From Escherichia phage mEp554: 53,846 nt of DNA. Made by a program: the position numbers and the translations under genes. The notes beneath the pieces were generated by a model, which saw only the letters and a list, made by a program, of their open reading frames with translations, made no database searches and had not been told where the DNA came from. Shown piece after piece: positions 5,330 through 12,401 of this stretch (its first letter is position 1; each line of letters opens with the position of its first letter). The stretch lies in sequence record PP180005; one strand, given 5' to 3'.

Positions 5330-6448
5330 TTACAAAATGGAAAATTCAGGGTAATAAACAAAGCGCCCGATCTCACCATGATCCGGGCTGTAAATTATTA
5401 CCGCCGCCAGGCGACGCGACCGCCAGCCGCCATTAGTTGAATAGGCATCTTTACCAGCTAACGTGCCGTGATACTCAACAACGCCCAACGATGATTCAAT
5501 CATCCGTTGATGATGCCAGTGCCCGCAGTGGGCGTAAACCGCCGCAGACTTGCCGAAATCCTCGCGCCAGTCAGCTACGCAAGCAGCCAATAAGTTTTCC
5601 GGCTTTTTGATAGTGTGCCCGTGGTGGTAAGCAAGGAATGTTTTCCCGTACTGCGTGTGGTGGACGATAGTAGGTGACACATCAACCGTCACGCGCGGTT
5701 CATCTTCGTAAAAAGCCGCCAGCGCCGCACGTAGCCAAATCATACCAGACTGGTCATGATTCCCTGATAACACCTGGATTTCCACATCCTTATGATTTAG
5801 CAACATCTTTCCTACAGCCCGCCGGACAGACCGGATCGCCACATAAACAAGTTTTGCGTAGCGCGAATCGCAATCAAGAACGTGATTGCTTGATGGCGTC
5901 ACTGGTAACAATCCGTCAGTGTGAAGCAGGTCGCCCCCGAGAAGAAGAACCGCTTTTTCACTCATAGGGGCAGCGCCAACTGCGTAGTCAAAGAAGTCAT
6001 TTAACACGCGTTCAGCGATCCCAGTGTCGTAGCTCTCGCCGCATTCAGCTTTATGAGCAAGCGCCCCGATGTGCAGGTCAAACACCGGATAAAGTGCCAG
6101 GCTTTTTTGAAAATCAATTTCAGGCACTGGCACGGCCTCCGCGCGTGGTATTTCTTCCGTGAATGCGTCGCGGGCCGCTTCCATTAACTGTTCCATTTCG
6201 TCGCGGTCACGGGCTGTTTTAATCCAGCGCATGATCACATTGCCATCCTTATCGACTAGCAACGACTCGCCATTAACACCAAAACCAGGAGCGCGGCGCG
6301 TTGATAATAAACCGCGTTTTGCCAGTTTTGCTCCCAGGCGTTCGACATTGCGTTTAGACATGCCGTACTTTTCAGCGATCTGTTTGTACGTTAATCCGTT
6401 GTTATATTCAGCGATCAATTGCTCATCACTGATTTTTCTTTGCGACAT
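5330..6448 (-). CDS. HTH domain protein fused to calcineurin-like metallophosphoesterase
   Basis: Phosphoesterase motifs DLH, GDLLHTDG, GNHD, HHGH, GHWHH; N-terminal LTYKQIAEKYGMSKRNVERL HTH; start at SD-preceded MSQRK. Confidence 0.75.
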   Translation of the reverse strand: MSQRKISDEQLIAEYNNGLTYKQIAEKYGMSKRNVERLGAKLAKRGLLSTRRAPGFGVNGESLLVDKDGNVIMRWIKTARDRDEMEQLMEAARDAFTEEIPRAEAVPVPEIDFQKSLALYPVFDLHIGALAHKAECGESYDTGIAERVLNDFFDYAVGAAPMSEKAVLLLGGDLLHTDGLLPVTPSSNHVLDCDSRYAKLVYVAIRSVRRAVGKMLLNHKDVEIQVLSGNHDQSGMIWLRAALAAFYEDEPRVTVDVSPTIVHHTQYGKTFLAYHHGHTIKKPENLLAACVADWREDFGKSAAVYAHCGHWHHQRMIESSLGVVEYHGTLAGKDAYSTNGGWRSRRLAAVIIYSPDHGEIGRFVYYPEFSIL

Positions 6449-10409: not shown

Positions 10410-10532
10410 ATGGTTATTAAGGCGCTTCAATTCAAACTTGCGGTAGCGGAAATGCTTCACGATGCCGAAATGTGGAGCGCCGCAAATAAAGCCTTGTACA
10501 TAGTGTTAACAGCTAAGGAGATCAAAGAGTGA
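10410..10532 (+). CDS. Hypothetical small protein (40 aa)
   Basis: GGAGGTGA SD; stop overlaps erf start. Confidence 0.35.
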   Translation: MVIKALQFKLAVAEMLHDAEMWSAANKALYIVLTAKEIKE

Positions 10533-11170
10533 AAACAGAATTACACAAAAAGCTGTGGACGATTCAACAAACGCTGAACGCACCGAAAAATCAGCGCAAT
10601 AATTTCGGTGGGTACAATTACAGGTCGGCGGAGGATATTTTGGAGGCGGTTAAGCCACTTCTTCAAAATATAACGCTGACTGTTAGCGATGAAATCGTCC
10701 TGATCGGCAATCGCTATTATGTGAAAGCCACTGCAACACTAAGCGACGGAGAAGATGAAATTGCGGTAACTGCTTACGCCAGGGAAGAAGAAAGCAAGAA
10801 GGGAATGGACGCAAGCCAGTTAACTGGCGCGACATCAAGTTATGCGCGTAAATACGCGTTGAACGGCTTGTTCTGCATTGATGACGCAAAAGATCCTGAT
10901 ACTGATGCTTACGCGAAACAGACAAATCAACAGCCGCGACAGCAGAAAAACACGCCGAAACAACAACCACAGCAGCAGAAAGCGCCGCCAAATCCTGATG
11001 AAGTATTAGCACGTTTCTGTGATGCGGCAGCGAAAGCGCCGGACGCTAACAAGTTGCGCGAGATATTCGGGAAGTGCTGGAAGATACTTCCTAAAGATTC
11101 AGAGCAGCAACAGAAAGCTAAAGACGTTTATGATATTCGCTTAAAAGAGCTTAACGGGGAGATCGGTTAA
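10529..11170 (+). CDS. erf: Erf-family single-strand annealing protein
   Basis: GGYNYRSAEDILEAVKPLL motif typical of ERF family; GTG start with AGGAG SD. Confidence 0.8.
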   Translation: MKTELHKKLWTIQQTLNAPKNQRNNFGGYNYRSAEDILEAVKPLLQNITLTVSDEIVLIGNRYYVKATATLSDGEDEIAVTAYAREEESKKGMDASQLTGATSSYARKYALNGLFCIDDAKDPDTDAYAKQTNQQPRQQKNTPKQQPQQQKAPPNPDEVLARFCDAAAKAPDANKLREIFGKCWKILPKDSEQQQKAKDVYDIRLKELNGEIG

Positions 11171-11637
11171 TGAGCTTAAATTCAATCACGCTGGGCGGTA
11201 ATATCGGAAATGATATGGAAGTTCGCTACACGCAAAACGGTAAAGCTATTGGTAGCTTTCCGTTAGCTGTAACGAATGGCTACGGTGATAATAAGCGGAC
11301 AATGTGGATCACTTGCCTGGTATTTGGCGAGCGTGCGGAAAAATTAGCTCCACATATTCGTAAGGGTGGAAAAATAGTGGTAAGCGGTCGCCTGGATGTT
11401 CGGCAATATGACCGGAACGACGGCACGAAGGGGACGGCGGTAGAAGTGGCGGTCAATGAATTTGAGTTCATGGCTGTTAACCAGCAAGGCCAACAGCAAG
11501 GCCAGCAGCAGGGCCAGCGCCAGCCGCCGCAACAGAATCAAGGCGGCGGCAATCAACCTCCGATGGATTTTGACGATGATATCCCATTTAGTTGCGTGGG
11601 GTTACAATATGGAAAACATAGAATCTACGCGTTGTAA
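11170..11637 (+). CDS. ssb: Single-stranded DNA-binding protein with 15-aa extension after the acidic tip
   Basis: OB-fold SSB N-terminus; Gln/Gly-rich linker; DFDDDIPF tip at 11566-11589 followed by SCVGLQYGKHRIYAL before stop. Confidence 0.85.
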   Translation: MSLNSITLGGNIGNDMEVRYTQNGKAIGSFPLAVTNGYGDNKRTMWITCLVFGERAEKLAPHIRKGGKIVVSGRLDVRQYDRNDGTKGTAVEVAVNEFEFMAVNQQGQQQGQQQGQRQPPQQNQGGGNQPPMDFDDDIPFSCVGLQYGKHRIYAL

Positions 11638-12139
11638 ACGGTGTATAAAATGTGGGGCGTTATTGCCCCTTTCTTCTTTCTATAAACATAAATTAATGGC
11701 TGACGGTCACTCAAATAAATGTAAGGAGTGTACGAAGCAAGATGTAAAAGATAATCGCAAGAAAAATATAGAACGCTACAGGGAATACGACAGAGAGCGC
11801 AACCAATCAGGGGATAGGAAAGCGTTAAGACGTCGTTATCGTCAAAGCGATGAAGGTAAGGAGGCGCATAAAAGGGCTTGCGACAAGTGGGTTAAAAATA
11901 ACGAGAAGAAGCGCCACGCCGAAATAATGGTAGGTAACGCTATCCGCGATGGCAAATTAATTAAACAACCTTGCGAAGTATGCGGCAGAGAGGACCGCGT
12001 ACACGCGCACCATTGCGATTATGATAAGCCGCTCGATGTTATGTGGCTTTGCCCGATATGCCATCGAGCGTGGCACAACGAACACGGTGAAGGAGCTAAT
12101 GCACACGACGAGGTATTAAATGGTGAGCGAATATCTTAA
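11609..12139 (+). CDS. HNH endonuclease (candidate homing endonuclease)
   Basis: CEVCGREDRVHAHHCDYDKPLDVMWLCPICHRAWH HNH motif; N-terminal CKRCIKCG zinc-finger; starts inside SSB 3' end. Confidence 0.8.
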   Translation: MENIESTRCKRCIKCGALLPLSSFYKHKLMADGHSNKCKECTKQDVKDNRKKNIERYREYDRERNQSGDRKALRRRYRQSDEGKEAHKRACDKWVKNNEKKRHAEIMVGNAIRDGKLIKQPCEVCGREDRVHAHHCDYDKPLDVMWLCPICHRAWHNEHGEGANAHDEVLNGERIS

Positions 12140-12401
12140 AGCACCGCCACCGCCGCGAACAAAAGAGCAAGTTCTAAAAGAAGCCCGTGATCAAATCGAT
12201 CGCGGGCTTTTTTTATGCGGCACGGCGGCGGATCGAATGGCGAAAAGATTTAGTGACCTGTACGCAAAACAAATATGGTTCGACAACTGGCAGGCAAGTT
12301 TTTACCCACTGCAAAGAAAACCGGATATGCATTGGCCTGAATATGTCGATCCACGTATGCGCAAATATCGCGGGCGTATGGGCCAGGTTATTAACGATTA
12401 A
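12120..12401 (+). CDS. Hypothetical protein
   Basis: ORF in operon; no recognisable motif. Confidence 0.5.
   Translation: MVSEYLKAPPPPRTKEQVLKEARDQIDRGLFLCGTAADRMAKRFSDLYAKQIWFDNWQASFYPLQRKPDMHWPEYVDPRMRKYRGRMGQVIND

Follow-up and report, generated by a model that had tools for sequence, protein, structure and literature searches.

A conserved peptide beyond the acidic tip of a phage single-stranded DNA-binding protein, with the HNH endonuclease-like gene that begins within it

[quoted passage not shown] In Escherichia phage mEp554, the ssb gene continues in frame for 15 codons past this phenylalanine, and an HNH endonuclease-like gene begins inside the added codons. What is the added peptide, and how did it come to share its codons with the start of an endonuclease gene? 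We analyzed a stretch of 53,846 nucleotides (nt) of this phage, sequence record PP180005, which is called the window here; coordinates are those of the whole stretch. mEp554 is a temperate coliphage of the mEpimmI group, which has been described (PMC11893012), and its nearest records are mEp515, mEp021, MagusPhagus, mEp010, mEp013 and mEp044 (86-92% identity over matched parts). A preliminary description of the locus proposed that a free-standing HNH homing gene had inserted at the 3' end of ssb and displaced its stop codon. Our analysis corrects this mechanistic story and does not confirm it. To judge from its codons, the extension is a true tail module of ancient origin, on which purifying selection acts in the SSB frame alone. 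We think it probable that an ssb-associated mobile HNH gene carried the functional SSB tail of a donor into mEp554 as a passenger.

The ssb gene lies on the plus strand at 11170..11637 and encodes 155 amino acids. PF00436 matches residues 3-101 (7e-24) and TIGR00621 matches residues 2-140 (4e-29). AlphaFold2 (AF2) predicts the OB fold (residues 1-103, 11170-11478) with a predicted local distance difference test score (pLDDT) above 90, and everything beyond residue 103 scores below 50. A disordered linker that is rich in Gln, Gly and Pro (residues 104-129, 11479-11556) leads to the acidic tip PPMDFDDDIPF (residues 130-140, 11557..11589), which was read directly and matches residues 165-178 of E. 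coli SSB in PDB chain 1eqq. The window SSB therefore resembles SSBs with the canonical C-terminus (...DFDDDIPF-COOH) in its OB fold, its disordered linker and its perfectly kept tip. It differs from them in that the motif is not terminal: 15 conserved residues follow, and the tip Phe140, whose codon ends at 11589, has no free alpha-carboxylate. The C-terminal part reads ...QPPMDFDDDIPF, then SCVGLQYGKHRIYAL, then the stop codon TAA (11635-11637). The extension SCVGLQYGKHRIYAL occupies residues 141-155 (11590..11634, plus strand) in frame with ssb. The curated TIGR00621 profile stops exactly at residue 140 of 155, so that the 15 extension residues lie outside the canonical family model. The locus does not have the form of an intein or intron: the ssb frame ends 15 codons past the tip, SSB sequence does not resume downstream, and abc2 is the following gene.

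The translation-initiation region of the HNH gene is overprinted on the extension (11597..11611, plus strand). A candidate Shine-Dalgarno sequence, GGGG at 11597-11600, lies in the Val143-Gly144 codons, 8 nt upstream of the HNH ATG (11609-11611), and this ATG is built from the TAT-G of the Tyr147-Gly148 codons. The gene encodes a predicted His-Me finger endonuclease-like protein of 176 amino acids that begins MENIESTRCKRC. It runs on the plus strand from 11609 to 12139, with its stop at 12137-12139, in a frame different from that of ssb, and shares 29 nt with ssb and 20 nt with abc2. The sequence and the list of open reading frames (ORFs) thus bear out the preliminary description in its anatomy: all its coordinates, for the end of the Phe codon, for the HNH start and for the stop, were correct, and 15 residues do follow DFDDDIPF in frame with the HNH ATG among their codons. 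Overlapping gene starts are familiar from compact phage genomes, and the 29-nt overlap, which puts the Shine-Dalgarno sequence and the ATG inside ssb, is like them, as is the 20-nt overlap between the HNH gene and abc2. The window differs in that the overlapped ssb segment appears to be itself a conserved functional peptide and in that the arrangement recurs in divergent lineages. Given particular synonymous codons, the codons of [IV]-G-L-Q-Y-G can serve as Shine-Dalgarno sequence and ATG. An RNA hairpin masking the HNH Shine-Dalgarno sequence within the extension was not significant (fold z -1.7).

Some gene callers use an alternative in-frame ATG at 11576-11578, in the tip Asp codons, which would add 11 codons to the HNH gene (P0121, 187 amino acids). 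This ATG is not conserved: in the homologues at loci L138 and L096, stops in the same frame lie 3-4 codons upstream of the ATG that corresponds to 11609. RefSeq also starts the homologue in the E. coli RM9245 prophage (176 amino acids) at the position equivalent to 11609.

The HNH gene and the 3' end of ssb

Databases call the HNH product 'hypothetical protein' and the extended SSBs 'single-stranded DNA-binding protein'. Against PHROG, the HNH protein matched phrog_2340 'endonuclease' at 8e-48 and, more weakly, endonuclease VII and HNH phrogs. It had no match in Pfam (E up to 10), NCBIfam or PADLOC, and phmmer against PDB sequences gave nothing useful. Its layout consists of an N-terminal Cys4 zinc-ribbon-like domain, a helical stalk and a C-terminal beta-beta-alpha-Me motif. 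In 54 homologues, the two N-terminal CxxC pairs are invariant, and so are C122, C125, H134, H135, D137, C148, H152 and H156, in the motif CEVCG...VHAHHCDYDKPLDVMWLCPICHRAWH. The AF2 model (pLDDT 92) has the strand-strand-helix of a beta-beta-alpha-metal fold at residues 132-159. From these residues and the model we accept the His-Me finger/HNH-type endonuclease as the predicted fold class. The window HNH protein and that of mEp021 (L001 1582-2106) form a mosaic pair: they are near-identical from about NAIRDGKLIKQPCEVCG on, their N-terminal halves are strongly diverged, and overall identity is 61%. By its sequence, this pattern implies recombination inside the HNH gene itself.

Homologues of the HNH gene were collected from 80 IMG/VR loci (42-80% identity), 78 of which had enough upstream DNA. 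An ORF ending in an acidic SSB-type tip lies at most 260 nt upstream in 73 of the 78, and a hidden Markov model (HMM) confirms a canonical OB domain in 24 of these 73. The upstream tips read ...DDDIPF, often IPFN or IPFS. Genes downstream, in contrast, fall into 45 unrelated clusters across 75 loci. Therefore, the family is anchored to the 3' end of ssb and not to the downstream gene. The HNH ATG follows the Phe codon at a distance of exactly 19 nt in the window, L007 (RM9245), L009, L030, L127-129, L131/134, L138, L140 and L096. These represent five divergent lineages: the mEp clade, L131/L134, L138 (AYVGLQYANHTIHCI), L140 (APVGLQYGKKFMHCI) and the Sodalis prophage L096. The 19-nt ATG is the TAT-G of tail Tyr-Gly or Tyr-Ala codons, and the invariant Gly codon provides the putative Shine-Dalgarno sequence. 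HNH-free tails, as in the comparison with L088 below, use TAC-GGT and have no ATG, and where the SSB has no tail, the HNH gene has its own leader of 12-56 nt.

We compared the locus in 6 phages from GenBank, in one prophage and in about 41 contigs from IMG/VR, with SSB identity of at least 75%, and found four states. In the first, seen in about 40 genomes, ssb ends with IPF and a stop, abc2 follows after 15-16 nt, and there is no HNH gene; the preliminary description had suggested just this alignment, and most close relatives indeed look so. In the second, a 15-residue extension is followed by an HNH gene that starts 19 nt after the Phe codon (the window, RM9245, L009, L030 and L127). The RM9245 extension is SPVGLQYGRHRIYAL. 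In the third, the extension has 16 residues (...RIYALS), the HNH gene is absent, and abc2 starts from the same internal ATG (MAKAGSTR-YLDAPP...); mEp013, whose SSB ends ...DFDDDIPF-APMGLQYGKSRIYALS, has this state together with L008, L010 and L011. In the fourth, in mEp021 and mEp515, the extension is absent and a homologous HNH gene begins about 30 nt downstream with its own Shine-Dalgarno sequence. We considered whether this 30-nt leader might be a decayed extension and rejected the idea, as it resembles the native ssb-abc2 spacer AATCAAT(T)AG(G/T)TTAG of HNH-less phages. Among 5,426 complete E. coli genomes, megablast with the junction found matches in only 2 places.

The edges of the inserted block are sharp. 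By blastn against the HNH-less relatives L207 and L032, homology with the window runs from erf to 11588/11589 and picks up again at 12129-12132. Within the block (11590..~12131, plus strand) are the extension, the HNH gene and a new start for abc2; the block takes the place of the ssb stop codon and of about 26 nt made up of spacer and the start of abc2. In the mEp clade, each of three tip alleles, PPMDFDDDIPF, PPDDFDPDIPF and VPPDFDD[DE]IPF, is found with and without the block. Pro139 is encoded by CCA in 7 of the 11 alleles that are HNH-associated or scars, and in none of the 36 plain ones. The right edge is variable: L009 retains the native abc2 Shine-Dalgarno sequence and start, and in the window and mEp021 the abc2 start (MVSEYLK) comes from the 3' end of the HNH gene, in the window together with the Shine-Dalgarno sequence. 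Thus, one part of the proposal of a displaced stop codon stands, namely that the HNH-bearing block begins at the first base after the Phe codon and removed the stop; the other part, that the extension is an accidental by-product of this event, does not.

The HNH gene is a stand-alone ORF that most mEp-clade relatives lack, it takes part in four locus states, and its block has a reproducible left edge at the conserved Phe codon, next to three tip alleles, as expected of insertion by a conserved target with co-conversion of the flank. Its sporadic occurrence among near-identical phages, and the near-constant position of its family beside ssb, agree with the free-standing mobile HNH gene that had been suggested. 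From the comparison of loci, it fits an optional, recombination-mobile endonuclease gene, which may move by homing. In being a small ORF that sits sporadically between conserved genes, with sharp indel edges by conserved coding sequence and donor flank that travels along, it is like the free-standing HNH homing genes of phages (the mob genes of T4; mobE, PMC2790892). The family differs from them in lacking a Pfam HNH match, in its strict association with ssb, in having its start in the conserved tail of the upstream gene, and in being known here from sequence alone.

A different meaning can be given to the linkage. The HNH protein might work together with SSB in phage replication or recombination, for example as a structure-specific nuclease of the endonuclease VII kind that is recruited to SSB-coated DNA, and the ssb-HNH order would then be kept for function or co-expression and not by a selfish gene. 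Position directly after ssb in 73 of 78 homologues from very different phages agrees with this, as do the matches to endonuclease VII families and a start that overlaps the end of ssb, which suits coupled expression. We nevertheless consider it unlikely. Of about 50 close relatives that are otherwise collinear, about 40 lack the gene, it has two junction configurations and an apparent deletion in others, the same block is joined to three ssb tail alleles, and some relatives have a paralogue at a second intergenic site, between erf and ssb; all of these are hallmarks of optional mobile genes.

This paralogous HNH-like gene (202 amino acids, 31-36% identical to the window HNH protein, phrog_2340) is found in mEp013 (L005 1126-1734), RM9245 (L007 1518-2126) and L027. 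It is absent from the window, which has no gene between erf and ssb in the ORF list because the erf stop overlaps the ssb start.

The third state bears on the order of events. The preliminary description named relatives that have the extended SSB end but lack an HNH gene as a finding that would refute it, and mEp013, L008, L010 and L011 do carry the same extension without the HNH gene, though they resemble scars of HNH deletion. In these loci, HNH-like codons 1-9 persist and run into abc2 at a shared TAT, and on this junction the loci are best read as deletion scars. The reverse order is improbable in our judgment: the mEp013-type arrangement, with the abc2 start inside the tail, would be ancestral, and an HNH gene would later have inserted in frame after abc2 codon 9 and borrowed the abc2 start. 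The mEp013-type loci do have one uniform junction, and the shared TAT suits insertion as well as deletion. However, the same ATG-in-tail start recurs in HNH homologues that are only 48-50% identical and have diverse downstream genes; therefore, the start belongs to the tail-HNH pair and not to abc2. Canonical abc2 genes, moreover, start MVDYLK or MGDYLK, without the 5-6 extra codons.

Selection on the tail and its distribution

The SSB of a P1-like plasmid (L088) carries GLQYGKHRIYAL, identical to the corresponding peptide of the window. Its codons are GGA CTT CAG TAC GGT AAG CAC CGT ATA TAT GCT TTA, and those of the window are GGG TTA CAA TAT GGA AAA CAT AGA ATC TAC GCG TTG; all 12 codons are changed without a single amino-acid change. 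Among 35 unique 15-codon tails, the proportions of synonymous (pS) and nonsynonymous (pN) differences in the SSB frame are 0.757 and 0.307 (pN/pS 0.40), and in the other two frames pN/pS is 1.21 and 1.62. Entropy at codon positions 1, 2 and 3 of these tails is 0.90, 0.61 and 1.58. In the part of the extension that the HNH start overlaps, the SSB frame has a pN/pS of 0.23 within the mEp clade and the HNH frame one of 1.08, and the HNH N-terminus drifts (MENIESTR, MDDTESTR, MAKAGSTR, MEKAESTH) while the SSB peptide holds. On this codon evidence, the extension is both translated and kept under constraint as part of SSB.

A search with the window SSB found 14-16 residues after ...DDDIPF in about 58 of the best 120 SSB clusters, a share of roughly half that is biased upward, as the query itself carried the extension. 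The tail consensus is IPF-[AS]-[P]-[IVM]-G-L-[QPM]-[YFH]-x4-[ILM]-x-x-[ILVM]. Examples are ATIGLQYGKHRIYAL (Enterobacter), APIGLPYPRHAIYVI (Proteus) and ASIGLTHGKHTIYCL (Klebsiella), and also APIGLMHNNNLMHCI and APIGLQYPALLLCS. In one-genome-per-species data, a degenerate DNA pattern for DDIPF-AP-h-GL matched 34 loci in some 20 genera, including Providencia, Proteus, Moellerella, Sodalis, Tatumella, Pantoea, Vibrio, Pseudoalteromonas, Rheinheimera, Idiomarina, Colwellia, Glaciecola, Oceanisphaera, Zobellella and Chromobacterium. The genes downstream at these loci are diverse and mostly non-overlapping, usually beginning 8-150 nt past the stop. In ten pattern loci that we inspected, the flanking ORFs resemble prophage replication or recombination modules. 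P1-like phage-plasmids of Enterobacter hormaechei also have a tail-bearing SSB; there the next gene is convergent and does not overlap the tail.

Across Gammaproteobacteria, tails are mostly found without a nearby HNH gene, and they occur on two SSB families, with phrog_44 and phrog_743 cores. The phrog_743-type SSB with a tail has 243 amino acids (L097, L118, L125) and no Pfam hit. At L131/L134 (1532-2026), the tail stands on a divergent phrog_44 core that both PF00436 and our SSB HMM fail to detect. To judge from these sequences, linker, tip and tail are a portable module, because they are attached to different DNA-binding cores.

Two other observations concern SSB ends. A Rheinheimera metagenome-assembled genome (L100) has two SSB tails with the extension, at 5716-5744 and 6264-6292, both on the same strand and separated by about 550 nt; one is on a full-length SSB of 194 amino acids and the other is in an open frame with a Met-initiated part of about 55 amino acids, and the pair may have arisen by duplication or be left over from recombination. 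Among environmental phage SSBs encoded ahead of HNH homologues, many end IPFN or IPFS, one residue beyond the usual Phe (L132, L135, L136, L147-L152, L158, L161-L168 and others). As far as their sequences tell, these ends are another departure from the free Phe carboxylate.

Could the extension still be meaningless read-through, from an HNH cassette that landed on the ssb stop and by chance leaves the ssb frame open? Two observations favor this: no mEp-clade locus has the extension unless the HNH gene or its apparent remnant accompanies it, and the block begins exactly after the Phe codon. We give the idea very little credence: the extension is not a by-product, because in HNH-free contexts wholly different codons spell out the same peptide, 14-16-residue tails with a shared consensus stand before unrelated downstream genes in many genera and on unrelated SSBs, and purifying selection is confined to the SSB frame, in the mEp clade as elsewhere. 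A sequencing or assembly error, that is, a frameshift or a lost stop after IPF in a single assembly, has nothing but the unusual C-terminus in its favor and is ruled out for practical purposes, since the same open frame and peptide occur in the independently sequenced mEp013, in the RM9245 prophage, in IMG/VR contigs and in NCBI E. coli proteins of 153-155 amino acids.

Transfer of the tail and its possible effect on docking

The passenger model, which we prefer, can be put as follows. Tail and HNH gene would behave as a unit because the HNH initiation region sits in the tail codons. HNH would cleave the 3' ends of HNH-less ssb genes and so drive gene conversion. Recombination through the tip-coding sequence at the left edge of the unit, which is highly conserved, would bring the unit into a new genome, and the recipient SSB would gain the tail of the donor, as in homing with co-conversion of donor flank. 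The mEp554 locus may thus illustrate how a selfish gene transplants a functional protein module into a new host gene, and in the ssb-linked HNH family there is a candidate for a homing system whose target would be among the most highly conserved short stretches of bacterial coding sequence.

What the tail would do to SSB is a separate question. The Phe alpha-carboxylate is anchored by the 'basic lip' of partner pockets (PMC10164576). With the tail, this carboxylate is gone as a free group, and a new hydrophobic C-terminus (...IYAL) stands 14-16 residues further on, which may alter the binding of partners. As the tail buries the Phe carboxylate, it should therefore prevent or gate the docking of host partners; we regard the chances that it does so as about evenly balanced. 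The tightly fixed length of 14-16 residues, the invariant Gly, the near-invariant adjoining Leu and the hydrophobic last residue point to a short linear motif that may be read from its own C-terminus. A beta-clamp-binding motif and C-terminal ClpX tags were considered as the identity of the tail, and both fit its consensus poorly. The perfect conservation of the tip suggests that it is still needed, perhaps after processing, in regulation in cis, or as an internal motif.

Several points weigh against this account as a whole. The strict conservation of the tip speaks for its continued use and is hard to reconcile with a model in which the tip is just blocked. The constant synteny of ssb and the HNH gene could be explained by functional partnership instead of target-site specificity. 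The mEp013-type loci could be an ancestral state instead of a deletion scar. The share of tail-bearing clusters is inflated by the choice of query, as mentioned above. We infer the function of the extension throughout, and in the AF2 model of the full SSB, made from a 53-sequence alignment of extension-bearing homologues, the tail is disordered (pLDDT below 50) and does not dock on the OB fold.

A broader proposal is more tentative, and we hold it to be somewhat less probable than its opposite. Post-tip tails might form an undescribed mobile-element class of SSB, in which the tip is gated or blocked for host partners and the new hydrophobic C-terminus recruits another partner; the tail would have spread as the obligatory passenger of an ssb-targeting HNH homing endonuclease with its ribosome-binding site and start in the Gly-Leu-Gln-Tyr-Gly codons. 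We found no description of post-tip SSB tails or of the ssb-linked HNH family in the searchable literature, which leaves most subscription journals outside and includes the mEpimmI genome paper. A comparable case is the SSB of phage HK620, whose tail NDYPPF is needed by Sak4 (PMC5928155). Like the window SSB, it is a phage SSB encoded beside a single-strand annealing protein gene, with a C-terminal tail that is likely to serve protein contacts. The HK620 tail, however, is a variant terminal tip, whereas the window SSB keeps a host-type tip and has a second motif appended to it.

A large set of phage, prophage and plasmid SSBs keeps the Phe handle yet buries it under a conserved tail of 14-16 residues. 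This would imply an unrecognized mode of SSB regulation or partner choice. For annotation, such SSBs should neither be 'corrected' to end at IPF nor have their extension labeled an artefact.

Neighboring genes and hairpins

Upstream of ssb, erf (10529..11170, plus strand) encodes an ERF-family single-strand annealing protein (Pfam PF04404 at 6.6e-43). Downstream of the HNH gene, abc2 (12120..12401, plus strand) encodes an anti-RecBCD protein (phrog_656 at 2.5e-31). The Ssb of mEp021 (L001 1142-1552) carries the GenBank note 'Structural phage Protein', which is unusual for an SSB; it was among the virion-associated proteins found by proteomics (PMC11893012).

A terminator scan marked a GC hairpin with a U-rich tract at 11654..11680 (plus strand), 45 nt into the HNH ORF. 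The hairpin (GGGGCG/CGCCCC) has a folding energy of -11.3 kcal/mol (z -3.1) and is also present in mEp021 and L009. Possibly it attenuates HNH expression, to judge from its sequence; it coincides with the conserved CGALLPLS codons and could be coincidental. A second terminator-like hairpin, at 12176-12222 in the abc2 coding sequence and followed by U7 (-25.8 kcal/mol, z -6.1), was missed by this simple scan. Relatives share this conserved hairpin, and the GenBank records of mEp010, mEp044, mEp515 and mEp013 list it as an ARNold terminator.

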